NCBI RefSeq assembly: GCF_001936115.1
Contig: NZ_MPDM01000001.1
Coordinates: forward strand, 146,123-210,122
DNA length: 64,000 nucleotides
Source of the DNA: Boudabousia marimammalium
GTDB taxonomy: Bacteria > Actinomycetota > Actinomycetes > Actinomycetales > Actinomycetaceae
Direction of reading: 5' to 3'
Position 1 is the first letter of the stretch; each line of letters begins with the position of its first letter. The notes beneath the pieces were generated by a model that saw only the letters and a list, made by a program, of their open reading frames with translations, made no database searches and was not told the origin of the DNA. A program made the translations under genes and the position numbers. Below, piece after piece: positions 31,320-52,160 of this stretch.

Positions 31320-32681
31320 CTAGTTATCCGCGTCCACGCCCCCGTCCGCATCGTTGCTTTCGGTCAGGCCTTGGGCAATGCCTTGCCCCACCATCCTACC
31401 TTGCAACATGGCAGCCAAATCCAGGCCGGTAGCTGCCTTCATTGACTCAAATACGCCAGACATTGCGACCGGCATTTCCTGAGACAAATTTTCGCCGGCA
31501 GAGGCCTGGCCGCTGCCACCAACAATCGTAATCTTGCCAATCTTCGCGTAACCGTCAGCGAAAGCCATCATCAGTTCTGGCAAAATCTCCAAAGCTCTCT
31601 GCGCTAGGATGGCGTCCTGATTCTCCCGCAAGGCTTGCGCTTCAGCAAGGATAGCTTCCGCCTTAGCTTGACCAGCAAGTTTAACCACTTCCGCATCCGC
31701 CTCGGCCTCGATCTTCCTTGCTTCCGCCTCCCGCTGCCGGCGATACAGTTCGGCGTCAGCTACCTGGCGAACCTCAGCGTCCAAACTGGATCGCTTGTTC
31801 AAGGCCTGCTGCTTCAAAACTCGTTCAGTGGCAGCTTCCCGGGCCAGCCGCTCAGCCTGCTCCGCCTCCGCATTAGCTTTACCGGTAGTGGCATTAGCTT
31901 CCGCCTGATTGCGCTTAAACTCAGTGTTTTCGATCAGGTTCTGTTCTTCATTGGCGATACGCTGTTTAGTAATGGCACGTTCAGCGTCAGTCTTAGCGAT
32001 TTCAGCGGCCTGCCGTTTCGCCTCAGCCTCCGGCGTTCCCAAGGATTCAATGTAGCCGATGCTGTCACGAATTTCCTTAATGGAGAAAGAGTCAAGCACC
32101 AGACCCTGCTTTTCTAGGTCTGGACGAATTTCCGTGAAAATATGGTCAGAGAAAATCTGCCGAGACTCCATCAGCTCAGTAACTTTTTGTTTCGCGATGA
32201 CCCCTCGGAGAGCACCCTCCAACTGTTCCCGAATAAAGACCTCAATGACTTCATCCTGGCTGGCGAAACGCTCAGCCGCAAGACGAACCAGGTCAGGGGT
32301 GTTACCGATCTTCACCAGTGCCACAGCCTCAACATCAACCTCAATCTTGTCCAAAGACTGCGCCTGCGCATTAACAATCACCTGACGCGATCGCAAAGAA
32401 ATAATCTCATGCCGTTGCGTAATCGGATTAACCAGTGATTTCCCGTTAACGATTACGGTAACAGGACTCTCAGTGCCGTCCTCTAGCACTTGCCTCTTAC
32501 CTGAAATGACTAGTGCTTCGTCGGCCCGAGCCACTTTAATCCAAGCGCGCGATGCCAGCACAAAAATTGCTGTAACCACCGCCGCGATGATAAGAAAAAT
32601 AATCAAGGCAACTAGGAAGCCGCCGATTTTGATTGTGGTGACTGTATTGTCTATGACATCAAGTCCCTTGTAGGAAAACAT
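31320..32681 (-). CDS. Flotillin-like SPFH/band-7 protein (YqiK/FloT-like)
   Basis: It has an N-terminal TM segment, an SPFH domain and a long Ala/Glu/Lys-rich coiled coil. The probable ATG is at 32681 with a GGAAGGTGGGG ribosome-binding site. Confidence 0.75.
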   Translation of the reverse strand: MFSYKGLDVIDNTVTTIKIGGFLVALIIFLIIAAVVTAIFVLASRAWIKVARADEALVISGKRQVLEDGTESPVTVIVNGKSLVNPITQRHEIISLRSRQVIVNAQAQSLDKIEVDVEAVALVKIGNTPDLVRLAAERFASQDEVIEVFIREQLEGALRGVIAKQKVTELMESRQIFSDHIFTEIRPDLEKQGLVLDSFSIKEIRDSIGYIESLGTPEAEAKRQAAEIAKTDAERAITKQRIANEEQNLIENTEFKRNQAEANATTGKANAEAEQAERLAREAATERVLKQQALNKRSSLDAEVRQVADAELYRRQREAEARKIEAEADAEVVKLAGQAKAEAILAEAQALRENQDAILAQRALEILPELMMAFADGYAKIGKITIVGGSGQASAGENLSQEMPVAMSGVFESMKAATGLDLAAMLQGRMVGQGIAQGLTESNDADGGVDADN

Positions 32682-32819
32682 TTCCCCACCTTCCGCTAGT
32701 GTAATAATGTTGCCATTATATACGTCCGACACTAGCTGAAAAGCCCCCAAGATCAACTTCACCCCCGAAAGCAACTAGGTCTTTCGGGGGTGAACTTCTG
32801 GGGGTAATAACCTAAGCGT

Positions 32820-37875: not shown

Positions 37876-38343
37876 ATGAATGATAAACGCATGAACACTG
37901 AGTCTTTTAATCTTGACCATCGCACGGTGGCGGCGCCTTATGTGCGGGCCGCGGACCGGAAGGTGCTGCCGGGCGGGGATGTCCTCATCAAGTATGATGT
38001 CCGTTTCGCGCAGCCGAATCGGGCGCATATTGACATTCAAGCGGTCCATTCGATTGAGCATATGACGGCGGAGTTCATGCGCAACCATACGGATCGGCTG
38101 ATTGATTTTTCCCCGATGGGTTGCCTCACGGGCTTCTACTGCCTGACATTGGGTTTGGAGTTGGATGAGTTCTTACCGATCCTGGAGGCCAGTTTTAAGG
38201 ATATTTTGGGGGCCGAGGAAGTGCCCGCCGCCAATGAGGTACAGTGCGGTTGGGGCGTTAATCATTCCTTGGAGAAAGCCCAGGCGGCGGTGCGTGATTT
38301 TTTGGCGGCCCGCCCCGAATGGGAGCAGGTTACTAAACAGTAG
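37876..38343 (+). CDS. luxS: S-ribosylhomocysteine lyase
   Basis: It has the HxxEH metal motif (HSIEH). An alternative start is at 37891. Confidence 0.8.
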   Translation: MNDKRMNTESFNLDHRTVAAPYVRAADRKVLPGGDVLIKYDVRFAQPNRAHIDIQAVHSIEHMTAEFMRNHTDRLIDFSPMGCLTGFYCLTLGLELDEFLPILEASFKDILGAEEVPAANEVQCGWGVNHSLEKAQAAVRDFLAARPEWEQVTKQ

Positions 38344-38438
38344 CTACGGTAAGATTCTCTGTCACCCTTAACTGAAACTATTGTCGCAACACTGTGGCCG
38401 CTCTCGGGGTAGTGGTCGCACTTATTCTGGGAGTAACC

Positions 38439-39191
38439 ATGTTTGTACCTGCAACCGACGCCGCGGCTGACAGTCAAAAGTCTTTGCTTGACGCAGTCGT
38501 TATCTGCGCCATGGATTCTGAGGCTGCGCCTTTCTTGGCCATGTCCACCCTCGACCCGAAACCTGACCCACTGAAACCAGATTTTAAGAACGGCAAAGCT
38601 GAGGGCTGGGTCATTAGAATCGGTGAGCATCAGCTGCTGGTGGTGAAGTCCGGGATCGGTATTTCGAATGCTTCAGCGGCCGCCACTTGGGCGATCAACC
38701 TGACGGCAGCGCCCCTCCTGTTCTCTGCTGGTTCTGCTGGCGGTCTGGCCGCTTCGGTGAATGTGGGTGAAGTGATTGTTTCTTCCGCATCCCGCTATTC
38801 TCAAGTGGATGCGACCGCTTTTGGTTATGAAAAGGGCCAGCTCCCGGGTGAGCCCGTCAGCTTTGATTCCCCCGCTGAGCTAGTGAAGCTGGCTACCGAG
38901 AACGGTGGTATTGCCGGCCAGATTATTTCCGCTGACCGTTTCGTCATGTCCGACACGGTGGACAGGTTCCGCACTGATTTCCCGGAGGCTCTAGCGGTGG
39001 ATATGGAGACTGCCGGGCTCGCCCAGGTGGCCAGCCATTTCAACACTCCGTTCATGTCAGTGCGCGGCATCTCTGACCTGTGCGGACCGGCCGCCGACCA
39101 AGATCATCACCGTGAGGTTGATGAGGTCGCAGCCTCTGCCGCGAAGGTAGTTATGGCTGTGATTGACGGCCATAAGGCTGCTCAAAACTAA
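38439..39191 (+). CDS. mtnN: 5'-methylthioadenosine / S-adenosylhomocysteine nucleosidase
   Basis: It has the Pfs motifs VVICAMDSEA and (D)METAGLA. The longer ORF from 38394 adds a hydrophobic N-terminus. Confidence 0.75.
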   Translation: MFVPATDAAADSQKSLLDAVVICAMDSEAAPFLAMSTLDPKPDPLKPDFKNGKAEGWVIRIGEHQLLVVKSGIGISNASAAATWAINLTAAPLLFSAGSAGGLAASVNVGEVIVSSASRYSQVDATAFGYEKGQLPGEPVSFDSPAELVKLATENGGIAGQIISADRFVMSDTVDRFRTDFPEALAVDMETAGLAQVASHFNTPFMSVRGISDLCGPAADQDHHREVDEVAASAAKVVMAVIDGHKAAQN

Positions 39192-39303
39192 AGCTCCGGG
39201 GTTACGGCCGGAGACTTAGAGACGTGAACTGCAACCTATTCGAATATATTTTCCCTTTTGCGTTTGCTAAGAAGCCGGGCTTTCATTTATTATTACTTGG
39301 CAC

Positions 39304-39387
39304 GCGCGAGTGGCGGAATAGGCAGACGCGCACGGTTCAGGTCCGTGTGCCCGAAAGGGCGTGGGGGTTCAACTCCCCCCTCGCGCA
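39304..39387 (+). tRNA. tRNA-Leu (anticodon CAG), long variable arm
   Basis: The cloverleaf was folded by hand. It has a 7-bp acceptor GCGCGAG/CTCGCGC, U8, anticodon stem-loop CACGG-TTCAGGT-CCGTG, T-arm GGGGG-TTCAACT-CCCCC and discriminator A. It is close to E. coli tRNA-Leu(CAG). Confidence 0.8.
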
Positions 39388-39396
39388 CGTGAAAAG

Positions 39397-39438
39397 AATC
39401 GCGGTACTACCGAAGTAGTACCGCGATTCTTATTTTTT
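39397..39438 (+). terminator. Rho-independent terminator after tRNA-Leu (14-bp stem, tetraloop CGAA, tail CTTATTTTTT)
   Basis: Read from the sequence. Confidence 0.6.
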
Positions 39439-39498
39439 GCGCGATTCTTATCTTTGCTCAGGGACTAGCCATCAGCCATTGATGACTACTATGAAGCC

Positions 39499-39798
39499 TC
39501 AGTCGTTGCGATTGTTTTCTTCGCGAACATCAGGGGTAATACCGTACACGCCGTAAATGTAACCGGGCTCAGGAGCATTCCACTGACGACGGAACTGGAA
39601 ACCACCATAGAAAGCCATAGCGAAACCGATTACTGAAACCGGGTATCCGATGTATGCCATGTCGAAACCTGAAAAGAGTACTCCCAGCAGGAAGACTACG
39701 ATTCCAGCAATAAAGATTGCGTAGATTTTCTTATCGGTACGCTTCAACATCTCACCGAGGGAGACATTAGGATCAGCTGTTTGCCCACCCTTTTCCAT
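39499..39798 (-). CDS. Hypothetical small 2-TM membrane protein
   Basis: A 99-aa ORF lying in a lower-GC segment immediately 3' of tRNA-Leu. Confidence 0.4.
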   Translation of the reverse strand: MEKGGQTADPNVSLGEMLKRTDKKIYAIFIAGIVVFLLGVLFSGFDMAYIGYPVSVIGFAMAFYGGFQFRRQWNAPEPGYIYGVYGITPDVREENNRND

Positions 39799-39952
39799 TG
39801 TCGTTTCCTTTCATATATGACAAGAGATGTTCATTTGAACTCTCTATAGTCAGCTTATCGCACGCTTTATGCAAAAATTAAGGAAATCGTGACTAAAAAG
39901 GGCAAATTTTCCCAAAGCAGAATTTGAGATAAAAGGGGGATTCTTCCCTGTT

Positions 39953-40888
39953 TCACAGCCGATTCAGGGGGTCGTCGTCCGCGTCCTCGTCCTCATCTTC
40001 TTCACCCATCTGGTACTTATCCGGGTAACCCACATCGAGGGGGCCGAAATATCCAAAGAGGAGGCTGTCGATTGGGCCGGTCCCCGGCGGGAGTTTCCAG
40101 TGGCGTTGATAGATGAAACCGGAGGCAACCAGCAGGGCAATACCCGCCAAAACCAGTATCAGAACGCCGATCCCTTTAACCTCCAAACCCGCCAAAGCTA
40201 GGCCCAGAATCAGCGAGATCGCACCCGCCACACCGGTAATAATGAAGCTCTTACCGGTTTTCAGCAAAATGTTCTTAGTGGAGGTTTCGTCGAAGATTTT
40301 TTCCTGCTGCTCACGCTCAACTTCTTCGCGGCGACGGGCCTCCCGCTGCAGCTGCGCATACTCCGTGGAATGAGCGGAGAAACCGCGGCCTTCCGGCAGT
40401 ACTTCAGCGGGCTCAAAACCAGCGCGGTCAAAGAAATCCCCCTCAGTCTCCACCCAGTCGGGACGCTCCCCGCTGCGGACCTGCTCAGAGAGCTGAATCA
40501 GCAAATCCCAGAACTGCTCCACGCTGGTGAAACTGGCCAACTCCAAAATGTCTAACTGTAGCTGATAATCTTGCGCGGTCAGCAGCAGGTAGTCAGAAAA
40601 CTGTTTGAACTGGCGTGACCAAAGCGGCTGATTCATTTCCAGGAACAGGGCCGCGGTCGCAATATTATTTTGCAGGGTTTCACGCGGCAGGTCGAGGGCG
40701 GGTAGCGCCTCCACATCAAACTGGTTTACCGCATCAACCATTTCCTGACGATGCTCACGCAGGGTCTGCGGGTCCAGCAGAAGCATCCAAAATACGGGCA
40801 GGCTGTTGTAGGCCTCAAACAGATTGAACTTTTCAGCTTTCCCAGTCTCGGCCGCCTTGGTGGCGGTCAAATAAACCTGTTGTCCCAT
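39953..40888 (-). CDS. Hypothetical protein with C-terminal 2-TM anchor and acidic tail
   Basis: A 311-aa ORF with no recognisable catalytic motif, in a lower-GC segment. Confidence 0.45.
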   Translation of the reverse strand: MGQQVYLTATKAAETGKAEKFNLFEAYNSLPVFWMLLLDPQTLREHRQEMVDAVNQFDVEALPALDLPRETLQNNIATAALFLEMNQPLWSRQFKQFSDYLLLTAQDYQLQLDILELASFTSVEQFWDLLIQLSEQVRSGERPDWVETEGDFFDRAGFEPAEVLPEGRGFSAHSTEYAQLQREARRREEVEREQQEKIFDETSTKNILLKTGKSFIITGVAGAISLILGLALAGLEVKGIGVLILVLAGIALLVASGFIYQRHWKLPPGTGPIDSLLFGYFGPLDVGYPDKYQMGEEDEDEDADDDPLNRL

Positions 40889-40978
40889 AATCTATTCTCT
40901 CTTTACGTCAGTTTTCACGGGGTCTCCCCCACCGCTGCCAGCCCCCGAACCAGGCTGTGGTTCAGCTCGGTCTCAATC

Positions 40979-42007
40979 TTAGCGGCCCAGACGCGGTAAT
41001 AACAGGTTCACCACGCAACCGGTGTGCGCAACATTATTGCTGATGGAAACGCTGCCGCCGTGAGCTTCCACAATGGTTTTCACAATCGCTAAGCCCAGTC
41101 CAGAACCGCCAGAGTTTAATGCTTTACTCCCGGTTTTTTGCGGAGTACGGGCAATATCGCCGCGCCAGCCGGCCGTAAAAATATGTTCCAGTTCTTCCGC
41201 CTGCAAACCGGCGCATTCGTCGGCAACCTGCACCCGCAGGTCCGAACCAACCGCATCCAGCTTCACGGTGACAGTGGAGTCAGTTTTCGTGTACTGAACC
41301 GCGTTCATAATCACGTTCTGGAGGGCTCTTGTCAGCAGCACACCATCACCAATCATGTCTGATTCTGACACTAGGGTTTCACCCTCTAGGCGTACGGTTT
41401 TCGCTTCTGCGACCGGTTCAATCTGGGCGATCAGGTCAGAAACCAAATCGGCTAGACTCACTGCTTCGGTCTGTAGTTTGACCGTACCTGAACGCAGGCT
41501 GGCCATTGCCATCAGATCATTAACCATAACTGTGGTGCGCTGCGCGGATTCAATGATCTGCCCATAGTAGGCTCGCGGGTCTGAGGCAACGCCATCCTCT
41601 AGGGCTTCAGCCATGGCGCGGATCCCGGCCAGTGGCGTACGCAGATCATGAGACAGCCAGGTGATGAGTTCACGGCGGCCTTCCTCGACTTCGCGGCGGC
41701 GGCGCTCAAGTTCCAGTTCGGCTTGCGCCTGCTCCATCATCCGCTGGTTCTTCACCGACACGAAAACCCCCACCAGTAACGCTACCGGCGCGGTCGCCAG
41801 CAGAATCAGCAGGGGCACTTGCACTTCTGACACCAGCATCACTTGCATGCCGACCAGTAGCCCGGCCGCGACCGCCAACACCACGGACAGGGGTGCTAAG
41901 ATAGCTGCCCACCGCACAGATCGGCGGGCCACTCGCAACGTCACGAAGGCGCACAGCAGCCCGGTCAGGAGGGTCGCGGCAATGGCTTCCAGCAAATGAA
42001 TCGTCAT
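40979..42007 (-). CDS. Two-component sensor histidine kinase
   Basis: It has 2 TM segments, the HisKA H-box WLSHDLRTPL and a HATPase_c domain with a G-box. Confidence 0.8.
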   Translation of the reverse strand: MTIHLLEAIAATLLTGLLCAFVTLRVARRSVRWAAILAPLSVVLAVAAGLLVGMQVMLVSEVQVPLLILLATAPVALLVGVFVSVKNQRMMEQAQAELELERRRREVEEGRRELITWLSHDLRTPLAGIRAMAEALEDGVASDPRAYYGQIIESAQRTTVMVNDLMAMASLRSGTVKLQTEAVSLADLVSDLIAQIEPVAEAKTVRLEGETLVSESDMIGDGVLLTRALQNVIMNAVQYTKTDSTVTVKLDAVGSDLRVQVADECAGLQAEELEHIFTAGWRGDIARTPQKTGSKALNSGGSGLGLAIVKTIVEAHGGSVSISNNVAHTGCVVNLLLPRLGR

Positions 42008-42018
42008 TAGTTACTCTT

Positions 42019-42750
42019 TCAGTTTTCTGGCGTCTCGGCGGGTTCCCACCGGTAGCCGCGACCCCAGACAGTGACTAGGCGTTTCGGGGCGGACGCATCC
42101 GCCTCAATCTTGCCGCGCAAGCGCCGCACATGAACCGTCACAGTGGAAGGGTCCCCGTATTCGGAGCCCCAAACTTCCACCATGAGTTTCTCCCGGGAAA
42201 ACACCTCGTTCGGGTGGGTCACCAGAAAGGCCAGCAGGTCATGCTCACGCAGAGTCAAACCGAGCGGCTGACCATCGCGGCTGGCTTTGCCTGCTTTCAG
42301 GTCCAAAGCCAGGTCACCATCTTCAACAATCTGGCGGGTTTCCTCCGCAGACTGCTCATCCTCGGCGCCCCGGCCGCGACGCAAAACCGACTGGATGCGT
42401 AGAACCAGCTCACGTGGGCTGAAGGGTTTAGTCAGGTAGTCGTCCGCACCCAGCTCGAAGCCGAGGATGCGGTCAGCTTCCTCCCCGCGGGCAGTCAACA
42501 TGACTACCGCGGAGTTCACTTGGCTTTGGCGCAGGCGCCGGAACACTTCCAGACCGTCAATATGCGGCAACATCAGGTCCAGGACCAGCAGGTCGTAGCC
42601 GCCGGTGCGGGCCATCTCTAAGCCCTGCAAGCCGTCGCTGGCCTGATCGACCTCCATCCCGGAGGCTTTCAGGTAGTCAGCGACCACTCCGCGCACTGTG
42701 GAATCGTCATCTACAACAAGAATCTTTGGCACACCCCCATCATATTCCAT
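42019..42750 (-). CDS. OmpR-family response regulator
   Basis: It has the receiver domain motif KILVVDDD and a winged-helix C-terminus. The probable ATG is at 42750. Confidence 0.8.
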   Translation of the reverse strand: MEYDGGVPKILVVDDDSTVRGVVADYLKASGMEVDQASDGLQGLEMARTGGYDLLVLDLMLPHIDGLEVFRRLRQSQVNSAVVMLTARGEEADRILGFELGADDYLTKPFSPRELVLRIQSVLRRGRGAEDEQSAEETRQIVEDGDLALDLKAGKASRDGQPLGLTLREHDLLAFLVTHPNEVFSREKLMVEVWGSEYGDPSTVTVHVRRLRGKIEADASAPKRLVTVWGRGYRWEPAETPEN

Positions 42751-42775
42751 GAGGGTGAAGCCGCGGACCTCAGGA

Positions 42776-44473
42776 TTATCCGAAGGTGAAGGCATTGGCG
42801 CTCACACCCTTATCGAAAGTCAAAGTGACTTGGGTGCCTTCGGTGATTTCAGGCAGTTCAACCAGACGGTACAGCCGGTAGTCTTGCACTTTCACCTGGC
42901 CGTCTTTCACGTCCATGCCGCCGGGCTGACTGATTCCATCAACCATGACTTTCACCTGGCTGGAGGCTCCGGCAGGTACACCCTCGGCCCCCATCACGAG
43001 GAACATTTTCTTCCCGGTGAAACGGTAGCTTAAAGTGGCGCCAGCAGATTTGGCGGTGATTTTTTCGCCGTCAACCTCCCAGTCGCCGCCTAGGGTCCAC
43101 TCGTTTTGGGTGATACTTTCCGCCGGCTGATAGGTGTTCAACCCAGCCTGCAGGTGAGGGGTGCCCACGAATCCACGGGCCCGGTTCACGCCCAGGTAGG
43201 TTTCCGGGGACTGCTTTTCGGAGCTGGTTTCAACCATCCCTTGGGGTTTGGCCGAGGGCGCGTCCACATTCAGAAGCTGCTGGATAGCTGATTCGGTCTG
43301 CTCATAATCGCCTTCCCCAAAATGGGTGTAGCGGATGTCGCCGTTCTTGTCGATCAGGTATTTGGCCGGCCAGTAGCGGTTATTGAAAGCACGCCAGGTG
43401 GTGAAGTTATTGTCTAGGGCTACCGGGTATTTAATGCCGGCTTCTTGGACAGCGTTTTCTACGTTGGCGGGGACTTTTTCGAAAGCAAATTCGGGGGCGT
43501 GCACGCCAATGATTTCAAAGCCTTTGTCATGGTAGTTGTCGTACCAGGCGTTCAGGTACGGCTGGGTGCGTTGGCAATTAATGCAAGAGTACGTCCAGAA
43601 GTCGATGAGGACTACTTTGCCTTTGAGCTGCTCTAAGGTGGTGGGGTTGGAGTTGATCCATTCTTGCAGGCCAGCCAGTTCCGGCGCCTGCGTGCCAGCG
43701 GGCAACAGCTCACCGGCAGGGGATTCCTCAGCGCCGGCACCATTATCGGAGTCCGGGATGAGGCTTTCTTCTAACTGGGTGATGGAAGGGGCCCAGTCTA
43801 CCGCCCAGGTTTGGATTTTTTTGTCCACGCCGGTGACGATGGAGATACCCACCAGAATGAAGAGGATAGCGAGTGCGCGCTGGAACCAACCGTAGGGGTT
43901 AGCCAGCCAGCCGAGCTTGGTTATTAGGGCGCGGCCCAGCATGGCGATAGCCAAGAGGACAATAGCCAGACCAATGCAGTACATGGCCAGATAGAACAGG
44001 CCGACAGCCGGTTCGGCGGGCAGCACGGTCGCAATCACCCACGCATAGGTGGGGCTGCAGCTGGAGAAAACGGGGCCGAGGGCGGCGCCGGTTAAGATAG
44101 CGGACCAGGTGCCGTTATTTTTGCTGCGGGCGTTGTCCAGCATTTCATGGGATTTATTTCCCAGTTTGGTCCAGGTCATGACACGGGCCCAGAGGCTGGG
44201 GAAGAGCATGACGAAGCCAAGGATGATTACCAGGATGCCGGAAATGAACGGCCAAACACCGGGGTCAATATCAATCAGGAGGGTGCTGGCTTTAAGCAAA
44301 ACTGTGAAGACCAGCAGTGAAGTCACCAGGGAGGCGGACACAATCAGGGGGCGTTTCCAGCCGCCTTTGTTGTCGAGGCTGCCGCCCACAATGATGGGCA
44401 GGAAGGGTAACACGCAAGGCGCGAGGGCGGAAAGCATGCCCGCCAGGAGCGAAAGTAGGGCGATTATTAGCAT
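42776..44473 (-). CDS. DipZ-like fusion: CcdA/DsbD transmembrane domain plus TlpA/ResA-like thioredoxin domain (CxxC = CINC) plus C-terminal domain
   Basis: The N-terminus has the CcdA-type motif MLSALAPCVLPFLP. The central domain reads LIDFWTYSCINCQRT. The architecture matches mycobacterial DipZ. Confidence 0.7.
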   Translation of the reverse strand: MLIIALLSLLAGMLSALAPCVLPFLPIIVGGSLDNKGGWKRPLIVSASLVTSLLVFTVLLKASTLLIDIDPGVWPFISGILVIILGFVMLFPSLWARVMTWTKLGNKSHEMLDNARSKNNGTWSAILTGAALGPVFSSCSPTYAWVIATVLPAEPAVGLFYLAMYCIGLAIVLLAIAMLGRALITKLGWLANPYGWFQRALAILFILVGISIVTGVDKKIQTWAVDWAPSITQLEESLIPDSDNGAGAEESPAGELLPAGTQAPELAGLQEWINSNPTTLEQLKGKVVLIDFWTYSCINCQRTQPYLNAWYDNYHDKGFEIIGVHAPEFAFEKVPANVENAVQEAGIKYPVALDNNFTTWRAFNNRYWPAKYLIDKNGDIRYTHFGEGDYEQTESAIQQLLNVDAPSAKPQGMVETSSEKQSPETYLGVNRARGFVGTPHLQAGLNTYQPAESITQNEWTLGGDWEVDGEKITAKSAGATLSYRFTGKKMFLVMGAEGVPAGASSQVKVMVDGISQPGGMDVKDGQVKVQDYRLYRLVELPEITEGTQVTLTFDKGVSANAFTFG

Positions 44474-44585
44474 CGTTATGGCTTTCAGGTTTGAGGGTGT
44501 AGGTAGGCCCGGATCTGCCAGTGCCTGCGCAAGAGTTGCGGTTCTTGCCTAGGAACTAGCGGATCCGGGCCGGAAGAGGAACTGG

Positions 44586-45134
44586 TTACTTGCTGAGCTT
44601 CTTCGCTAGGTCCGCGGCGTTGGTGCCGGTCCACTGGTTCAGGGCTTTGCCGTCTTTATCTACCTGCACGAAGGTGTGCTGCATGGTGACGCCGTACTTC
44701 TTACGTAGGTCAGTGTGGGTGTCGTAGTCAACGGAGACGACGGTTGCGTTTTCCGGGATGAGGGACATATCGGATTTGAAGGCTTCATCGGCGGCGCGGC
44801 AGGCGGGGCACCAGGTGGCGTTAAAGAAGAGCACCACGTCGCGGTTCATGTAGGAGTCCATGTGGCCCATGTATTCGTCGTATTTGACGTAGGAGGCGGG
44901 CTTCATCATGCCGTCAGGGGTCATGGCTTTATCCATATTTTCCATGCTCTCCGGAGTCATGGACTTGTCCATTTTCTCCATTGATTCTGGGGTCATGGTC
45001 ATTTCCATGGTTTTTTCCATGGTCATGCCGTCGGGGGTCATCGCATCTTTGGGCTCATCCGCACTGGAGCACCCGGCAAGGGTGGTGGCTAGTACGGCGG
45101 CGGCGGACATTGCAATCATTACTGTTTTTCTCAT
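44586..45134 (-). CDS. Thioredoxin-fold lipoprotein (WCPAC) with an N-terminal methionine-rich repeat region
   Basis: It has a signal peptide with lipobox LAGC. The repeats MTPESMEKMDKSMTPESMENMDKAMTPDGMM are followed by a thioredoxin CxxC fold. Confidence 0.6.
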   Translation of the reverse strand: MRKTVMIAMSAAAVLATTLAGCSSADEPKDAMTPDGMTMEKTMEMTMTPESMEKMDKSMTPESMENMDKAMTPDGMMKPASYVKYDEYMGHMDSYMNRDVVLFFNATWCPACRAADEAFKSDMSLIPENATVVSVDYDTHTDLRKKYGVTMQHTFVQVDKDGKALNQWTGTNAADLAKKLSK

Positions 45135-45308
45135 GTCTTTAACTCTGTCACAGGAACCCTTACAGACTGGGGGAGGATTTTATTAACAAAGTATGAACAG
45201 TTCTTTCGATTTGATTTTCTCTTGCTCTGGGGTGTTCACCCTCCCTGAATCTTTCGGGGCGGGTTAGAATATGGGTGTTGACCTATATCTTTATGGAGGA
45301 GTACTTAA

Positions 45309-46010
45309 ATGGGACTATTCGACAAAGCAGAGCGCGCTGTCGAGAAGTCGGTAAATAGCGTCTTCTCAAAGATGTCTCATGCTCCTTTAAAGTCTGTTGA
45401 TTTAGCTGCTGAGCTCAAACGCAGCATGGATGAAGCGATGCCTGTTGAGGGAACCCCGGACGTGCATTACAACTTCTTCACGGTGGCGCTTTCTCCGCAG
45501 GATTTTGAGAGTCTCACTAAGGACAGTTCGATTAGTCAGCTCTCTGAGTCTTTAGCTGATGAGCTTTACTTTTATGCGGAGGAGCAGCAGTTTTACCTGC
45601 TCGGCGATATTTCGGTGACTGTGGTTTCCAGTGAGAGCACTGGCGCGGGCCGCATCATGGTGACTCCGCAGATTCATCACACGGCGACCGCTCCGGCTTT
45701 TAACTATGCGGCGACCGCTGCGCATCCCATTATTGAGCTTGATGGCCGTCTCTACCGCCTGAATCAGCCGGTGATTGTGATGGGCCGGGGCACGCAGGCC
45801 GATATTCGTTTGAATGATAATGGGGTTTCGCGTGAGCATTTGGAGCTGAAGAACACTGACCAGGGCATGATTGCGACCGATTTGAACTCTACGAATGGCA
45901 CTTTCGTGGAGGATCAGCGGGTCACGCTGGTTCGTTTGGTGGATGAGAACCTGGTGCGAATCGGCAATACGACTTTCACTTTCTTCACTGGTGATGAGGG
46001 TGGGATTTAA
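45309..46010 (+). CDS. fhaA: FHA-domain protein FhaA (DUF3662 plus FHA)
   Basis: It has a C-terminal FHA domain and sits at the conserved position before fhaB and pstP. Confidence 0.8.
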   Translation: MGLFDKAERAVEKSVNSVFSKMSHAPLKSVDLAAELKRSMDEAMPVEGTPDVHYNFFTVALSPQDFESLTKDSSISQLSESLADELYFYAEEQQFYLLGDISVTVVSSESTGAGRIMVTPQIHHTATAPAFNYAATAAHPIIELDGRLYRLNQPVIVMGRGTQADIRLNDNGVSREHLELKNTDQGMIATDLNSTNGTFVEDQRVTLVRLVDENLVRIGNTTFTFFTGDEGGI

Positions 46011-46534
46011 TGAGCAATGAACTGTTAGTTACCCTCATCCGGGTGGGTTACCTGGCCCTGTTGTGGCTGATGGTGATTGCCTGCCTGTCGGTTTTGCGCC
46101 GAGATATTTTTGGCACCATGGTGACGCCTCGGGGACGAGGGCGCGGCGCCGCTACGCGTCGCCGGGCTGCGGTTGCGCCGGCTAACGCGGCGGAAGCTCC
46201 GCCGTTGCCGGGCGCTGCTACTTTCCCGAAATCCGACGGTAAAGCTCCGCTGCGTCTGATTGTGATGTCTGGTCCTTTGGCAGGCACCAGTCTGCCTTTA
46301 GATAATTCTCCGATTGTGATTGGTCGTTCCCCGACTTCGACTTTGGCTTTGCGGGATGATTATGCTTCCAGTCAGCATGCGCGTTTGTTCCCGAATCAGC
46401 AGGGCTGGTGGCTGGAGGATCTGGGTTCTCGGAATGGCACTTTCGTTGATGATGAGAGACTAGTTGAGGCACGGCCTGTGCATGAGGGTGTGCAGTTCCG
46501 GATTGGCAGCACCACTTTGCAGATTGGACGATAG
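46010..46534 (+). CDS. fhaB: FHA-domain membrane protein FhaB/FipA
   Basis: It has an N-terminal TM segment and a C-terminal FHA domain. Its start overlaps the fhaA stop (TAATG). Confidence 0.8.
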   Translation: MSNELLVTLIRVGYLALLWLMVIACLSVLRRDIFGTMVTPRGRGRGAATRRRAAVAPANAAEAPPLPGAATFPKSDGKAPLRLIVMSGPLAGTSLPLDNSPIVIGRSPTSTLALRDDYASSQHARLFPNQQGWWLEDLGSRNGTFVDDERLVEARPVHEGVQFRIGSTTLQIGR

Positions 46535-46536
46535 TC

Positions 46537-47862
46537 ATGCCGATCGAGTTACGTTACGCGGCCCGCTCCGATGTGGGTTTGGTCCGCAAACAGAATCAAG
46601 ATTCCGGCTATGCGGGTCAGCATCTACTGGTACTAGCTGATGGCATGGGTGGTCCTGCCGGTGGCGATATTGCCTCATCGGTGGCGGTCGCTCACCTATC
46701 TGCTTTAGATCAGGATGCTTTCGCAGCGGAGGAGCTCCTCCCCAATTTGAAGCAGGCTATCCAGGCGGCTCACGATGAGCTGGTGGCGCGCTCTCAGGCG
46801 GACACTGAGCTGGAAGGCTTGGGCACTACCTGCATTGCAATGCTGCGTTCGGGCCGAAAACTGGCGATGGTCCATATTGGTGATTCACGCGCCTACGTGC
46901 TTAACGGTGGCGTGTTAACCCAGGTGACGAAAGATCATTCTTTTGTCCAGTACCTGGTTGATACCGGCCAGATTACGGAGGAGCAGGCAGAGCATCACCC
47001 TCAAAAGTCCGTGATTTTACGGGTTTTGGGTGATTCTGAATCCGATGTGGTCCCGGATGAGTCTTTGCGTGAAGCCGTGCCGGGTGACCGCTGGCTACTG
47101 TGCTCTGATGGTCTTCATGGCGTGGTCAGTAAAGAAACCATCACTGAGGTTTTAACTACTTTCAAGAATCTCGATGAGTGCGCCGATAAGCTGGTGGAGC
47201 TAGCGCTTCGCGGCGGAGGCCCCGATAACGTCACGGTGGTGGTCGCTGATGTGGTCTCCCAGGTTTCTGATGTGCCGCAAAATATTCCCCAAATTGTGGG
47301 TTCAGCTGCTACTGATCGTTTGAAGAAAACTACCGATGAAACTTCCTCGGCCTCACGCGCTGCCGCTTTGACAGCGAACTCCACGCAGCTGGAAGACCCG
47401 CAGGGTGAAGAGGCGAAAGAGAATCATCAGCCGCGGAAGCGGCGCAAACTGTGGCGCGGGTTGCTGGCCGCCGTCTTGGTGCTGGCCGCGCTGACGGGTG
47501 CGGGCGTGGCCGCCTACCAGTGGGTGAGCAGTCAGTACTACGCCATTTTGGATGATGAAAGTATCGTGATCTATAACGGACTGCCGCAGCAGATTGGCCC
47601 CTGGGTTTTAGCTTCCGAGGTGGAAGTCCGTCACGATGACCGGATTGCTGACTTGCTCCCGGCCACCAAGAATCGGCTGAAAGAGCCGGTTCGCCGGGAT
47701 TCTTTGCAGGCGCTGGATGAGTATTTGGATAATCTGTTTGAGACCGATTTCCAGCAGCGTTTAGAAGCAAAAATGGAAGAAGACCGGGCTAAATCTTTTA
47801 CCCCGGAGACTTTGACCACCCCCGAGTCTACTCCTTCGGCCCCGGCGCCCAAGCAGGAGTGA
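46537..47862 (+). CDS. pstP: PP2C-family Ser/Thr phosphatase PstP
   Basis: It has PP2C motifs (DGMGG), a TM segment and an extracellular tail. Confidence 0.85.
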   Translation: MPIELRYAARSDVGLVRKQNQDSGYAGQHLLVLADGMGGPAGGDIASSVAVAHLSALDQDAFAAEELLPNLKQAIQAAHDELVARSQADTELEGLGTTCIAMLRSGRKLAMVHIGDSRAYVLNGGVLTQVTKDHSFVQYLVDTGQITEEQAEHHPQKSVILRVLGDSESDVVPDESLREAVPGDRWLLCSDGLHGVVSKETITEVLTTFKNLDECADKLVELALRGGGPDNVTVVVADVVSQVSDVPQNIPQIVGSAATDRLKKTTDETSSASRAAALTANSTQLEDPQGEEAKENHQPRKRRKLWRGLLAAVLVLAALTGAGVAAYQWVSSQYYAILDDESIVIYNGLPQQIGPWVLASEVEVRHDDRIADLLPATKNRLKEPVRRDSLQALDEYLDNLFETDFQQRLEAKMEEDRAKSFTPETLTTPESTPSAPAPKQE

Positions 47863-47869
47863 TGGGCTG

Positions 47870-49330
47870 ATGGCAACTATTTCTGTTCGGCCTGCCCGAC
47901 CGGGGCGCCTGCCTGAACTATTCCTCATGTTCATGGCAGTCCTCATTGGCGTGGGCGGATATGCAGCCACCGCTTATTCACGGACCGGCACCCTCCCGCA
48001 AGGTTTCACCACCCATATTGCGGCTTTCTTGGGACTAGCTGTGGTCGCCTCAGTGCTGGTCAAAATCTACGCCCCCTACGCTGACCCGGTGATTATGCCG
48101 GTCGCAGTAGCTTTGAATGGCCTGGGTTTAGCCATGATTTACCGGCTTGATCAGTCATATATTGAGGCAGGAAAAACCCTCTATGTGACTGGTACCAGGC
48201 AGCTGACCTGGACCTTTTTAGGGATTGGTGTGGCCGCCCTGATTCTGATTCTGCTGACTTCGCATCGCCGGCTTCGCACCACGCCTTTGCTGTGGATGAT
48301 TCTGTCTCTGATTCTGTTGGTAAGCCCGCTGATTCCCTTCATTGGACGCAGCATCAATGGCGCCACCATTTGGGTGAAGATCGGCCCTATTAGCGGCCAG
48401 CCTGCTGAGCTCGCCAAAGTGACTTTGGCGATTGCTTTCGCCGGCTACCTGGTGGCTTACCGTGACCGCCTGACTTTGGGCGGGAAAAAATTCTTAGGGA
48501 TTCGCTTGCCCAGGCTGCAAGACCTCGGCCCCCTCGTCATCGTTTGGGCCATGTCTATTGTGGTGCTGGTACTGCAGCGCGACCTCGGCACCAGCTTGCT
48601 GCTCTTTGGCCTGTTCGTTGCCATGCTGTATGTGGCGACCGACCGGGTTTCCTGGATTGTGCTGGGCCTGACCATGTTCTTTGGCGCGGCGGCTGTCGCG
48701 GTGCAATACATTTCGCATGTGGGCGCTCGCATCACCGTCTGGCTCCACACTTTCGACCCGGACGTTTATTCCGCTCCGCGTGGCTCCTGGCAGCTGGCGC
48801 AAGCCCAGTTCGGGATGGCTTCAGGCGGCATGTTCGGTTACGGCTGGGGCCGCGGCTATCCGACGGAGGTTTACGCCGCGCATTCCGATATGATTCTGGC
48901 CAGTTTCGGTGAAGAACTGGGCTTGACGGGTCTGCTGGCAATCTTCATGCTGTACCTGATTTTGCTGGAGCGCGGCATGCGTGCTGCCGTCAGCGTCCGC
49001 GATGGTTTCGGCAAACTATTGGCGACTGGCCTGACTTTCTCCATCGCTTTCCAACTGTTCGTGGTGGGCGGCGGTATCCTGCGCATTATTCCGCTGACCG
49101 GTCTGACTGCGCCGTTCTTGGCGGCGGGCGGCTCTTCCTTGGTTTCCAGTTGGATTATTGTTGCCTTGCTGCTGCGCCTGTCCGATGCGGCTCGTCGTCC
49201 GGCTGAAGATCCGCTGACCTCCACTAGGTCGGTACAAAAACTGTCCAATTGGTGGAAGAAACGACAGGCCGAAGGCGCCGAGGAAGATGCAAACACTGAT
49301 TCTGATGTGGCAGCGGAGGTGATGTCATGA
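47870..49330 (+). CDS. rodA: SEDS-family peptidoglycan glycosyltransferase RodA/FtsW
   Basis: It has the FtsW/RodA/SpoVE family fold with about 10 TM segments. Confidence 0.85.
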   Translation: MATISVRPARPGRLPELFLMFMAVLIGVGGYAATAYSRTGTLPQGFTTHIAAFLGLAVVASVLVKIYAPYADPVIMPVAVALNGLGLAMIYRLDQSYIEAGKTLYVTGTRQLTWTFLGIGVAALILILLTSHRRLRTTPLLWMILSLILLVSPLIPFIGRSINGATIWVKIGPISGQPAELAKVTLAIAFAGYLVAYRDRLTLGGKKFLGIRLPRLQDLGPLVIVWAMSIVVLVLQRDLGTSLLLFGLFVAMLYVATDRVSWIVLGLTMFFGAAAVAVQYISHVGARITVWLHTFDPDVYSAPRGSWQLAQAQFGMASGGMFGYGWGRGYPTEVYAAHSDMILASFGEELGLTGLLAIFMLYLILLERGMRAAVSVRDGFGKLLATGLTFSIAFQLFVVGGGILRIIPLTGLTAPFLAAGGSSLVSSWIIVALLLRLSDAARRPAEDPLTSTRSVQKLSNWWKKRQAEGAEEDANTDSDVAAEVMS

Positions 49331-50769
49331 ATCCGCAGATTCGTAAACTTACTGTAGCGATGGCCATCATGATTGTCTCACTCCTAGTGATGGCCACTTA
49401 CGTGCAGTTCTGGCGGGCCCCGGAGCTTTCCAATGATGCCCGTAACCGCCGTGACACTTACCAGTCGTGGGGGCAAGATCGTGGCCCCATTATTGTGGAC
49501 GGCACAGAGATTGCCCTTTCTGAAAAGAATCAGGCGGGTGATCGGTATCATCGTGTCTACCCGGAGGGGCCGCTCTACGCTGCGGTGACCGGCTATTCGG
49601 CAGAAAGAATCCATGTTTCCACTGGTTTGGAGCGGGTTGCCGCTTCGGAGTTGGATGGTTCTTCTAATACTTTTTTTGCGCAGCGGATTAAAGCCATGTT
49701 CACGGGTAAGGACCCGCAGGGCGGCGCCATCCAGTTGACCTTGAATCCGCAAATGCAAAAAGCTGCTTTTGCGGCGTTGGGGGATCGGCGCGGCGCCGTC
49801 GTAGCTTTGGATGTGAAGACCGGTGCGATTAAGGCACTGGTTTCCACGCCTTCTTTCGATCCTAATCTGCTCACCATGGAAGATGGTAAGACGGCTCAAA
49901 CAAATCTGGAAACCCTGCAGGATGACCCGCGCGCTCCACTGGTCAACCGGGCAATTTCTGGTAATCGTTATCCGCCTGGCTCGGTGTTCAAGATTGTCAC
50001 CGCGGCAGCGGCTCTTCAGGCTAATGATTTGTCCCCGGAAACAGTGATTGACGCTCCGCGGGAACTGCAGTTACCGGGTTCAACTGCCACTATTAAGAAT
50101 GATGGTGGGGCGGCCTGCGGTAGCGGCACGGTTCCCTTCAAGGAGGCGTTCGCCCGCTCTTGCAATACAGTGTTTGCGCAAATGTCCATGGATTTAGGTC
50201 AGGCAGCCATGCAGAAGCAGGCCGCTGACTTTGGTTTCGGTGAGGATCTGGCGACGCCGTTGGCTGTCACCCCCTCGATCTTCCCCGATACGAAATCAGC
50301 CCCGCAGTTAGCGCAAAGCGGCATCGGCCAGTTCGAGGTGCAAGTCACTCCGATGCAGGTCGCTTTGATTTCCGCGGCGGTCGCCAACCAGGGCAAGATG
50401 ATGTACCCGTACCTGATTGAATCCACCGCTGACCGTGACTTGGTGGTGCGGGCGAAGACCGCTCCGCGCGTGTGGAAGCAGGCAATCAGCCCGCAGGTCG
50501 CGCAGCAGCTCACCAACATGATGGTTGAAGTAGTCAATAGCGGCACCGGTAAGCGGGCCGCGATCAAAGGCATTCAGGTGGCCGGCAAGACCGGCACCGC
50601 TGAGACTGGCCGAGGGGGTGCGCACGCCTGGTTCACTGGTTTCGCGCCTGCCGGCGATCCCCGATACGCGGTCGCTGTGATTGTTGAATCTGAGGACGGG
50701 AAAGCCTTCCATGGTGGACAGGTCGCTGCCCCGATTGCCGCTGAGGTTTTGAAAGCGGGGCTGAGATGA
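49327..50769 (+). CDS. pbpA: Penicillin-binding protein 2 (transpeptidase) PbpA
   Basis: It has the transpeptidase motifs SVFK, SGN and KTGT. Confidence 0.85.
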   Translation: MNPQIRKLTVAMAIMIVSLLVMATYVQFWRAPELSNDARNRRDTYQSWGQDRGPIIVDGTEIALSEKNQAGDRYHRVYPEGPLYAAVTGYSAERIHVSTGLERVAASELDGSSNTFFAQRIKAMFTGKDPQGGAIQLTLNPQMQKAAFAALGDRRGAVVALDVKTGAIKALVSTPSFDPNLLTMEDGKTAQTNLETLQDDPRAPLVNRAISGNRYPPGSVFKIVTAAAALQANDLSPETVIDAPRELQLPGSTATIKNDGGAACGSGTVPFKEAFARSCNTVFAQMSMDLGQAAMQKQAADFGFGEDLATPLAVTPSIFPDTKSAPQLAQSGIGQFEVQVTPMQVALISAAVANQGKMMYPYLIESTADRDLVVRAKTAPRVWKQAISPQVAQQLTNMMVEVVNSGTGKRAAIKGIQVAGKTGTAETGRGGAHAWFTGFAPAGDPRYAVAVIVESEDGKAFHGGQVAAPIAAEVLKAGLR

Positions 50770-52160
50770 TTCATAAAGGCGCGGTCTACGGCGGCCGCTA
50801 TGAACTGACTGACCATATTGCGGTCGGCGGCATGGGGGAAGTGTGGAAAGCACATGACCGGCTCCGTGACCGTGAGGTTGCCATTAAGGTACTCCGTGAT
50901 GATCTGGCTGGTGATAAGCATTTCTTGCAGCGGCTGGCGATTGAAGCGCAGAATGCGCAGCGGATGAAACATCCGAATCTGGCTGCAGTCCTTGACCACG
51001 GTGAAGATAATCAGGTGGGATGGCTAGTCATGGAACTAGTTGAAGGCTACCCGCTGGTTGACTATGTGGCGAACGGTCACACCCTGACGGTGGAGCAGCT
51101 TCTTCCTTTGCTTTACCAGGTGGCTTTAGCTCTGACTGCCGTGCATGCGGCGGGCGTAGTCCACCGCGATATTAAACCCGGTAATTTCCTGATTGACACA
51201 GCCGGGCATTTGAAGCTGACTGATTTTGGGATTTCGCGGGCCGCCCAGCAAGCTGATTTGACTGAGGTCGGCATGGTGATGGGGACCGCCCAGTATTTGC
51301 CGCCCGAACAAGCCAAGGGTGAGGTCGCTACCCCGCTGGGAGACCTCTACAGTGTCGGCATTATCGCCTATGAGGCACTGGTTGGGCACCGTCCTTTCAC
51401 TGGTGAAACCCAGGTTGATATTGCTATCGCACATGTGAATCAGAAGGTTCCGCCACTACCGGAGACTATTCCGGCGCTGATGCGCACCCTGGTGATGTCT
51501 TTGCTGCAGAAGAACCCTGCGAACCGTCCGAAGGATGCCATCGCTTTCGCCCGGCAGGTCGCCTATGTGGCTCAGCAGCTTGAAGTGTCTTTGCAACCGG
51601 TACCGTTAGGCCCGCCCGATGCGGAGCAACTGGCCACCCCGAAGGTTACGCCCCCGGCGGCGAATGCGTCCTCGGCGCAGCCCCCTCGTCCTGCCTCCGA
51701 AACAGTGCAGGCAGCGTCGCAGCAGTCAGCGTCGGGAGCTAAATCGGCTGAGCCCGCCGCCAGACGAGTGGTACGAAAAACCGTTGCTACGAAACCCGCC
51801 CCAGCCCAGAGTACGGTCTTGGATCCAGTCCAAAGCAGCGAATGGCATCACTTCGAGCAGTCCTGGGATAGCCTTGTCAGTGAAGAAAACACTGATCTTC
51901 CAGAGGATTCCGCAGGGGCCCACAATTTTGCGGATGCGCCCGCTAAGGAGCGCAAATCTGACCACGTTACGACCAGTTTTACCCTAAAAAATGGTAATCT
52001 CACACAAAATAGCCCACTATGGCTACTAGCTGTGATTGTTCTGGTCCTCATAATAATCGCAGTACTGATGCAGTTTGGTTTGCACACTTTGAGCTACTCC
52101 GGCTCATACATTCAGGAGATGGAGGGAACCTTATGGTTGAATCACGCGCTCAGCGTCTAG
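50766..52160 (+). CDS. pknA: Ser/Thr protein kinase PknA-like
   Basis: It has Hanks kinase motifs (HRDIKPGN, DFG), a Pro/Ala-rich linker and a C-terminal TM segment. Confidence 0.85.
   Translation: MIHKGAVYGGRYELTDHIAVGGMGEVWKAHDRLRDREVAIKVLRDDLAGDKHFLQRLAIEAQNAQRMKHPNLAAVLDHGEDNQVGWLVMELVEGYPLVDYVANGHTLTVEQLLPLLYQVALALTAVHAAGVVHRDIKPGNFLIDTAGHLKLTDFGISRAAQQADLTEVGMVMGTAQYLPPEQAKGEVATPLGDLYSVGIIAYEALVGHRPFTGETQVDIAIAHVNQKVPPLPETIPALMRTLVMSLLQKNPANRPKDAIAFARQVAYVAQQLEVSLQPVPLGPPDAEQLATPKVTPPAANASSAQPPRPASETVQAASQQSASGAKSAEPAARRVVRKTVATKPAPAQSTVLDPVQSSEWHHFEQSWDSLVSEENTDLPEDSAGAHNFADAPAKERKSDHVTTSFTLKNGNLTQNSPLWLLAVIVLVLIIIAVLMQFGLHTLSYSGSYIQEMEGTLWLNHALSV

Follow-up and report, generated by a model that had tools for sequence, protein, structure and literature searches.

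A thioredoxin lipoprotein, a predicted DipZ orthologue and a two-component system form a conserved, probably autoregulated cassette in Boudabousia marimammalium

What purpose is served by encoding a Met-rich thioredoxin lipoprotein next to a transmembrane thiol reductase and a sensor-regulator pair? The question is raised by positions 40979-45134 of a 64,000-nt stretch of DNA from Boudabousia marimammalium (the window; coordinates are positions in it, and genes not otherwise assigned are from this species). On the minus strand of this region, the listing of open reading frames (ORFs) contains four ORFs, in the order trx (44586-45134, 182 aa), which encodes the lipoprotein, dipZ (42776-44473, 565 aa), a gene for an OmpR/PhoB-family response regulator (RR; 42019-42795, 258 aa) and one for a histidine kinase (HK; 40979-42007, 342 aa), in agreement with a preliminary description of the locus as four co-directional genes. 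That description also called the genes tightly spaced, which holds for dipZ and the RR gene (a 20-nt overlap, recurring in at least seven other genera or species) and for the RR and HK genes (an 11-nt gap) but not for trx and dipZ, which are separated by 112 nt containing a hairpin. It further proposed a reducing pathway responsive to copper or to oxidative envelope stress under a dedicated two-component system (TCS). The answer that we prefer is a self-contained, probably positively autoregulated cassette that would export reducing power to the cell surface against oxidative damage of the envelope, a reading to which, taken whole, we give an even chance. Its electron-relay and autoregulation parts we consider likely to hold, given the family membership of the products, the invariant synteny and the conserved upstream motif. 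Oxidative damage, with the Met-rich segment as a methionine sink, is the best-supported function, yet for Boudabousia this part is inferential and stays at or a little under an even chance, because no methionine sulfoxide reductase (Msr) gene accompanies the actinobacterial cassette.

The cassette recurs as a unit. Trx-DipZ-RR-HK cassettes (Trx, thioredoxin) are also found in Buchananella, Arachnia, Propionibacteriaceae, Dermabacteraceae and Corynebacterium argentoratense, set in unrelated neighbourhoods, and the gene order is identical in Buchananella, Arachnia and one Actinomycetaceae isolate. In a neighbourhood set of 81 non-redundant loci (loci compared in other genomes or metagenome-assembled genomes, MAGs, bear L-numbers), a CcdA-type gene directly follows the Trx gene in every locus wherever the contig continues, an invariant pairing that marks the lipoprotein as a dedicated extracytoplasmic partner of the CcdA/DipZ protein. 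Actinomycetaceae, Propionibacteriaceae, Dermabacteraceae, C. argentoratense and many Patescibacteria have a DipZ fusion as the partner, whereas many environmental Actinomycetota have a stand-alone CcdA of ~243 aa. Split versions occur in some Saccharibacteria, and a CcdA::MsrA::MsrB fusion is found in Patescibacteria. A homologous RR and HK pair flanks the Trx locus in 33 of the 81 loci, lying downstream and co-directional in 20, upstream and divergent in 8, downstream and convergent in 3 and upstream and co-directional in 2. That the four genes act as one functional unit, as had been proposed, is supported both by the order kept in unrelated neighbourhoods and by an RR-type repeat upstream of trx, described below.

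In the product of trx, which is 100% identical to a recorded protein of B. marimammalium (Actinomycetaceae), a signal peptide with a lipobox (LAGC, Cys22) occupies aa 1-22, a disordered, Met-rich tether follows over aa ~23-80, and residues 81-182 make up a Trx fold (Pfam Thioredoxin, 41.6 bits). In the AlphaFold model, blocks of the Trx domain, a minimal Trx fold over residues 81-182, reach a predicted local distance difference test (pLDDT) score of 93-98, and the tether scores ~50. The Met-rich N-terminal run and WCPAC-containing Trx fold of the preliminary description are thus both present, with WCPAC encoded at 44799-44813. Canonical TrxA features (WCGPC, buried Asp26, cis-proline (cis-Pro) 76) are not found in the lipoprotein, which has WCPAC, Phe103 and His153 instead: in a profile alignment to solved thioredoxins, His153 falls on the cis-Pro ('MPTF' becoming 'QHTF'; Q152-H153-T154 are encoded at 44673-44681) and Phe103 on the buried catalytic Asp. 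The segments VLFFNAxWCxxC, SVDYD and YGVTxQHTFVQ, in this order, are invariant across 18 aligned homologues of diverse origin, and among the 120 best homologues, QHT occurs in 117 and FFNA in 115, with Pro at the position of the His in none. No NCBIfam model reaches its cutoff for the lipoprotein (TIGR01068 gives 30.4 bits against a cutoff of 96.8), and no close relative was found in the PDB, where the best matches are ordinary thioredoxins with ~20-28% identity, so that His at the cis-Pro site has no structural precedent there. Membership in the Sco/SenC family is not indicated either, given that the protein has no SCO1-SenC Pfam match, carries CxxC rather than CxxxC and finds its best structural matches in plain thioredoxins. 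In a species scan of one genome per species, which included QHTF among its search patterns and is therefore biased towards the motif, relatives occur in Actinomycetota and Patescibacteria, in at least 559 species that include many host-associated ones. By these sequence features, the lipoprotein belongs to a Trx subfamily so far unnamed and unrecognised, to which we refer as QHT Trx.

The second gene is predicted to encode a DipZ orthologue of the Rv2874 type, as both the fusion and the C-terminal domain indicate; the DipZ-like CcdA::Trx fusion with an extra C-terminal domain of the preliminary description is borne out by PF17991 ('Thioredoxin_10', 120 bits, cutoff 27.1) and by a match to PDB entries 2hyx and 5cyy, the C-terminal region of Mycobacterium tuberculosis DipZ (E = 6 × 10−65, residues 253-499). 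The CcdA membrane domain spans aa 1-~225 (with Cys20 and Cys139), the TlpA-like Trx domain aa ~255-405 (C297-x-x-C300, cis-Pro369; Redoxin, 58 bits, with a Redoxin/AhpC-TSA assignment) and the PF17991 beta-sandwich aa 422-565. The Pfam families looked for were recovered in all four products, the membrane domain of DipZ being borderline, marginally below cutoff (DsbD_TM, 25.9 bits against 27.1; DsbD_2, 24.8 against 24.9). Comparison of 35 DipZ orthologues shows that the two CcdA cysteines are kept in at least 95%, and the CxxC and cis-Pro are kept too; no conserved Cys, His or Met suggesting a metal site was found in the C-terminal domain.

The RR and HK genes encode the expected OmpR-type regulator (Response_reg, 107.8 bits; Trans_reg_C, 86.7 bits; alternative start at Met16, position 42750) and sensor kinase (HisKA and HATPase_c, with His119). 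In an alignment of 34 cassette-linked kinases, all have three N-terminal transmembrane (TM) helices and an outer loop of 2-4 residues; neither a HAMP nor a sensor domain was found, nor any Cys or His that is conserved and faces outward. Such a short TM bundle without an extracytoplasmic domain agrees with the concept of intramembrane-sensing kinases (BceS/LiaS-like), and a metal-sensor feature of the CusRS/CopRS type was not found (cztS_silS_copS, 125 bits against a cutoff of 292). The kinase is therefore classed, by its predicted architecture, as an intramembrane-type sensor and not as a metal sensor of the CusS/CopS type. Met57, at the outer end of TM helix 2, is invariant in all 34 and often lies two residues after Arg or Gln; it could serve as an oxidation switch of the kinase. 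Since the kinase accompanies both DipZ-type and CcdA-only partners, its signal is independent of the Met-rich tether.

A putative RR box, the direct repeat GTTCA-N6-GTTAA with an 11-bp period, lies at 45183-45198 on the minus strand, 49-64 nt upstream of the trx ATG. Its sequence, GTTCATACTTTGTTAA (read from 45198 to 45183), is identical to the copy in L005 despite different flanks. A single copy of the repeat GT(C/A/T)A(C/G/A)-N6-GTAAG stands upstream of trx in 28 of the 33 TCS-linked loci, usually 63 nt before the start codon, and two further loci (L033, L052) have an inverted box in the spacer between the HK and Trx genes. The background frequency of the box is 0.044 per kb per strand, and for most high-GC loci it is the sole match in ~14 kb. 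Two box-like regex matches elsewhere in the window (32467 and 32386) lie inside a flotillin-like ORF (31320-32774) and were set aside as chance. Taken together, the conserved upstream box indicates that the cassette is probably autoregulated by its own RR. The box is the footprint expected of an OmpR/PhoB-type autoregulator, which makes a separately transcribed TCS regulating unrelated genes, the scenario that would have undone the 'dedicated' TCS of the preliminary description, unlikely; the TCS is moreover kept in four arrangements. In co-directional loci, a (C/T)GT(C/A)A(T/G) block follows the box at the same distance of 17-18 nt, represented in the window by a putative -10-like element (TGTAAGGGT, 45156-45164, minus strand, 18 nt after the second half-site). 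It is plausible that the conserved GT(C/A)A(T/G) block is a -10 element, which would place the repeat over the -35 region; a scan of 39300-45500 for sigma-70 promoters and terminators gave chance-level matches only. Five other actinobacterial loci (L025, L036, L047, L063, L065) have GTnAn-N6-GTAAG upstream of trx yet no complete TCS pair detected in the fetched sequence. A regulator gene still adjoins the module in L063, and the sequences of L025 and L047 stop shortly past the CcdA-type gene, which suggests that the controlling TCS is encoded elsewhere or was truncated by a contig end.

The spacer between trx and dipZ contains a 66-nt hairpin without a U tract (44506-44571, minus strand; dG -46.2 kcal/mol) that is more stable than shuffled sequence (z = -5.46; none of 200 shuffles equalled it). 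Only one copy occurs in the window, and among the loci compared the hairpin is unique to this genome; in related loci the gap is only ~1-8 nt and the hairpin is absent. Rfam matched nothing in 40500-45400, which places the hairpin outside the known RNA families. It might terminate transcription in part, attenuate it or stabilise the mRNA, or it may be an inserted element.

The tether that gives the lipoprotein its Met-rich character holds 14 Met in its richest 50-residue stretch (~28% Met), compared to a background of 2.7% Met across the 54 window ORFs and to 6 Met in 50 residues in the next best real protein. The DNA-level tandem repeat described earlier is present, in imperfect form, at 44917-45026 on the minus strand, where a repeat search found a unit of period 36 (44917-45008, 2.5 copies, 75% matches) and one of period 12 (44994-45026, 2.8 copies), encoding MTPESME(K/N)MDK(S/A) units. 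Tethers with at least 10% Met, our threshold, recur with unrelated sequences in Actinomycetota, where the lipoproteins carry DAMSP or AMTP-type units, and in Patescibacteria, where membrane-anchored proteins carry KDDAMMEK-type units. A Met-rich tether is found in 32 of the 40 proteins with a DipZ-type partner and in 1 of the 35 others (Fisher p = 1 × 10−12, uncorrected for phylogeny). The possibility raised at the outset, that the Met-rich stretch might be absent or variable in orthologues, thus proved correct in part: it is absent in about half of the family, many environmental Actinomycetota having Ala/Pro/Ser/Thr-rich tethers without Met, and elsewhere it recurs in unrelated sequences. The tether is therefore accessory, and the core function does not need it.

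Evidence on what the QHT Trx may serve comes mainly from Patescibacteria. In L030, a Candidatus Elulimicrobium MAG, a Met-rich QHT Trx gene is followed by a gene for a CcdA::PMSR::SelR (that is, CcdA::MsrA::MsrB) fusion. A search for full-length relatives of this fusion listed more than 120 proteins (at least 85% of the query aligned, at least 63% identity). In most of them the PMSR and SelR matches are joined by a DsbD_TM/DsbD_2 Pfam match, and wherever a source is named it is a Patescibacteria-group or unclassified MAG. Three more independent fusion loci (L088, L090, L091) all have a QHT-type, Met-containing Trx gene 2-3 nt upstream, so that such a Trx precedes each of the four ~600-aa fusions located (L030:1466-3301, L088:4001-5794, L090:4001-5806 and L091:4001-5809). 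Separate msr genes adjoin the module in L059 and L075 (Trx-DipZ-MsrB-MsrA) and in L087 (Trx-DipZ-DUF2207-MsrA). Tri-domain CcdA::MsrA::MsrB fusions appear to be common in Patescibacteria, and their pairing with the Trx implies that the QHT subfamily is a redox partner of extracytoplasmic Msr in one phylum; DipZ and CcdA::MsrAB would then be interchangeable partners of QHT Trx. The oxidative-envelope-stress half of the earlier proposal draws its support from here.

When the neighbour families of the 81 loci were clustered, an XRE/DUF2178 pair in Patescibacteria was the only recurrent one outside the cassette. Upstream of TCS-less Trx-DipZ or Trx-CcdA::MsrAB loci of Patescibacteria and similar MAGs (L006, L027, L037, L040, L048, L051, L056, L061, L062, L066, L075, L078, L084, L087, L088, L091) stand genes for a 70-aa XRE-type helix-turn-helix (HTH) protein and a ~120-aa four-TM DUF2178 protein with conserved FWMPDM and DERE motifs, and 13 XRE/DUF2178 loci have the palindrome GTAAAG-N4-CTTTAC at 66-79 nt before the Trx gene. 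Here, a membrane sensor, a repressor and an operator appear to take the place of the TCS in controlling the module. The closest relative of the window cassette, in L005 (Actinomycetaceae TAE3-ERU4), has a downstream TCS and, upstream, a divergent pair of genes for an XRE-HTH and a 152-aa protein (observation at L005:7124-7781); its HTH clusters with patescibacterial regulators.

These elements can be assembled into a mechanism. As family membership implies, DipZ would take electrons from cytoplasmic thioredoxin via its two CcdA cysteines and pass them to its own extracytoplasmic TlpA-like CxxC domain, and the lipoprotein would most likely shuttle them to surface repair enzymes or oxidised substrates; the patescibacterial CcdA::MsrA::MsrB partner implies that a QHT Trx can feed methionine sulfoxide reductases. 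By analogy to MrpX, the Met-rich tether would most likely be an oxidant-scavenging, Msr-repairable sink or bait beside the reductase; the lipoprotein has a lipobox for export and is Met-rich, and a link to Msr is seen only in its relatives. The kinase lacks an external domain and would therefore sense within the membrane, via its CcdA or lipoprotein partner or, more speculatively, by oxidation of Met57. It would then phosphorylate the RR, which, as the conserved motif suggests, would bind GTTCA-N6-GTTAA over the -35 region and activate trx-dipZ-RR-HK, with the hairpin after trx perhaps lifting lipoprotein output above that of the downstream genes.

Several observations weigh against this preferred reading. 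No msr gene was found by MsrA/MsrB motif search in the window, nor in ~50 actinobacterial loci, so that an exported Msr in Boudabousia is an assumption. Two features typical of functional thioredoxins, the cis-Pro and the buried Asp, are missing from the lipoprotein, which would be uncommon for a simple electron shuttle; none of the readings accounts for the His and the Phe in their place. The sigma-70 consensus scan gave no promoter at the proposed site, and the hairpin could end transcription after trx. The locus set was retrieved with patterns including QHTF, the Fisher test of tether against partner type takes no account of phylogeny, and about half of the family does without a Met-rich tether. 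A bolder pair of proposals seems doubtful even when the two are taken jointly: either the QHT Trx would be a distinct functional class, a surface Trx that has its own sacrificial Met tether and that a CcdA-fused reductase (DipZ or MsrAB) recycles in cis, with the kinase sensing the oxidant via Met57, or the His in place of cis-Pro would create a Cys2His site and make the family an unrecognised extracytoplasmic Cu(I)-buffering Trx of Actinomycetota and Patescibacteria.

A related alternative is that the cassette handles copper or silver. Met-rich motifs are typical of Cu(I) proteins, and the near-universal replacement of cis-Pro by His in QHT Trx would allow the reduced CxxC and His153 to form a Cys2His soft-metal site, with the tether capturing Cu(I), DipZ keeping the cysteines reduced (as TlpA does for ScoI and ScsB for ScsC) and the TCS inducing the cassette under copper stress. 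The cis-Pro is thought, according to two papers that both cite Su et al. 2007 (PMC2757866, PMC2665069), to stop CxxC thiolates from binding metal; ScsC binds Cu(I) with subpicomolar affinity (PMC8900818); tlpA of Corynebacterium glutamicum, a thioredoxin-like gene in the CopRS-dependent cg3286-cg3289 cluster, is up 235-fold under copper excess (PMC3140484); and copper stress is linked with periplasmic Met oxidation in Escherichia coli (PMC9302797). However, genes for P1B-ATPase, multicopper oxidase, CopZ and CsoR do not recur in the 81 loci, where they gave single regex matches in one locus each, and none was found in the window, in which a motif search for MsrA, MsrB, CPx-ATPase and MxCxxC signatures returned nothing. 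The kinase, unlike CusS/CopS, has neither a periplasmic metal-binding domain nor outward-facing His or Cys ligands, the window tether contains no His, half of the family lacks Met enrichment, and the partnership of the subfamily with CcdA::MsrAB fusions argues for a redox shuttle. The copper-responsive half of the preliminary description is supported neither by genomic context nor by kinase architecture, what remains for it being the His-for-Pro change and the Met motifs, and we consider it unlikely. His is not the only residue seen in place of the cis-Pro: in peroxiredoxins, Arg at this position activates the cysteine (PMC2757866).

The cassette might also be a housekeeping disulfide reductase or isomerase for the folding of secreted proteins, a reducing counterpart of the actinobacterial MdbA/VKOR oxidising pathway in which the Met stretch is a low-complexity spacer. 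Pairs of CcdA/DipZ and Trx are a standard reducing branch, the S. gordonii (Streptococcus gordonii) SdbB-CcdA2 pair serves the oxidoreductase SdbA (PMC7034828), and the Met-less tethers of many environmental Actinomycetota would fit a spacer. A dedicated, conserved TCS and box nevertheless imply inducible use, Met enrichment recurs in unrelated sequences of two phyla and goes along with the architecture of the partner, isomerases do not typically lack cis-Pro and Asp, and the Msr fusions point to oxidative repair; we regard this explanation as quite improbable. Cytochrome c maturation by CcdA/ResA-type reduction of apocytochrome, prompted by the DsbD_TM/CcdA and ResA-like domain matches, is rejected as extremely improbable, given the wide spread of the Trx-CcdA pair in Patescibacteria (which are generally considered to lack respiratory chains), the absence of ccsA, ccsB and resB from the recurrent neighbour families, and the stress-type TCS that the cassette carries.

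In the window, the cassette and two unannotatable genes, one for a 311-aa protein that has an acidic tail and a TM segment at its C-terminus and the other for a 99-aa protein with TM helices, sit between tRNA-Leu(CAG) (39304-39388) and fhaA. As no homologues of the genes that follow the HK gene (39953-40888 and 39499-39798) were found in the other loci, these were rejected as further members of the cassette. Next to the cassette, the fhaA-fhaB-pstP-rodA-pbpA-pknA-pknB cluster (45309-53953) is complete. No GC anomaly was found at the cassette, although its different location in other genera suggests that it is mobile. Farther away, luxS (37876-38343) is followed by a PNP_UDP_1 ORF for a Pfs-like nucleosidase (265 aa; both within 37876-39191), whose N-terminus resembles a signal or TM segment (MAALGVVVALILGVTMFVPATDAAADS), unusual for a cytoplasmic methylthioadenosine/S-adenosylhomocysteine (MTA/SAH) nucleosidase; its start codon may be wrongly set.

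Extracytoplasmic reducing pathways shield surface proteins of Gram-positive bacteria from host oxidants and are factors of virulence and colonisation in streptococci. The present work defines an unnamed Trx subfamily, its invariant CcdA-type partner, a dedicated sensor-regulator pair and a predicted operator, and thereby makes it possible to ask how oxidised envelope proteins are sensed and repaired without a periplasm, what use is made of a Trx without cis-Pro, and whether Met-rich tethers act as built-in antioxidants.

Among known systems, dipZ of M. tuberculosis, which presumably belongs to the SigK regulon and lies beside mpt70/mpt53, has to our knowledge not been described with a QHT Trx lipoprotein or a dedicated TCS. 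Its product (Rv2874; PDB 2hyx, 5cyy) shares with the window protein the three-part architecture, the CcdA cysteines, the CxxC and PF17991.

The Scs system differs from the cassette in the N-terminal domain of ScsB and in having no Met-rich tether, and no sequence membership of the cassette in Scs was found. ScsC is DsbA-like and retains the cis-Pro. Like the cassette, Scs (ScsB-ScsC of Salmonella, Proteus and Caulobacter; Cpx-regulated) combines a DsbD-type reductase with a Trx-fold partner, its induction runs through an envelope-stress TCS, and it has been tied to stress by copper and by oxidants (PMC10907172, PMC5524982, PMC8900818, PMC3322552). MrpX of Azospira suillum, encoded with YedY (MsrP) and SigF/NrsF, is a sacrificial Met-rich periplasmic protein (PMC4436054), and in the E. 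coli HprSR (HypVW)-MsrPQ system a Met redox switch was proposed in the kinase that controls msrPQ (bioRxiv 10.1101/2021.09.09.459708), comparable to the invariant Met57 of the cassette kinase. Both resemble the cassette as inducible envelope systems for a sacrificial Met-rich protein or for the repair of oxidised Met, whereas they use a molybdoenzyme reductase rather than a thiol relay and architecturally unrelated sensors, and MrpX stands alone in the periplasm instead of forming the tether of a Trx. The CopRS system of C. glutamicum (PMC3140484) is likewise an actinobacterial OmpR-type TCS that is autoregulated via a single direct repeat with an 11-bp period (TGAAGATTTnnTGAAGATTT), and it induces the thioredoxin-like tlpA (cg3289); CopS, according to the authors, senses extracytoplasmic copper, and the regulon includes a copper ATPase and a multicopper oxidase, neither of which is found here (PMC3140484).

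The closest parallel is offered by streptococci, and it shows that the earlier phrase 'not a textbook operon' was overstated: S. gordonii has two described TCS-CcdA-Trx lipoprotein(-MsrAB) operons, which are needed for H2O2 tolerance (PMC7034828), and the Etrx/CcdA/MsrAB2 system of S. pneumoniae is similar (PMC3914529). In these CcdA-Trx lipoprotein (Sgo_1177/SdbB, Etrx1/2)-MsrAB pathways, electrons are supplied for the repair of extracellular oxidative damage. The lipoproteins of streptococci resemble TlpA/ResA (their PDB entries 2yp6 and 4hqz match the Trx domain of DipZ but do not figure among the best 60 structures listed with the profile of the QHT lipoprotein), so that the TlpA-like domain, a separate lipoprotein in streptococci, is fused to CcdA here, and the separate lipoprotein of the cassette is instead a minimal Trx with His for cis-Pro, Phe for Asp and a Met-rich tether. 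The operons also differ in msrAB, for which no MsrA/MsrB motif was found in the window or the actinobacterial loci, only in the patescibacterial relatives. As in the streptococcal CcdA-Etrx-MsrAB systems, however, the cassette joins CcdA, a surface Trx lipoprotein and a TCS, and patescibacterial relatives of the window lipoprotein are coupled to MsrA/MsrB. These comparisons indicate that the cassette is a variant of the known extracytoplasmic CcdA-Trx reducing pathway, equipped with a dedicated regulator.

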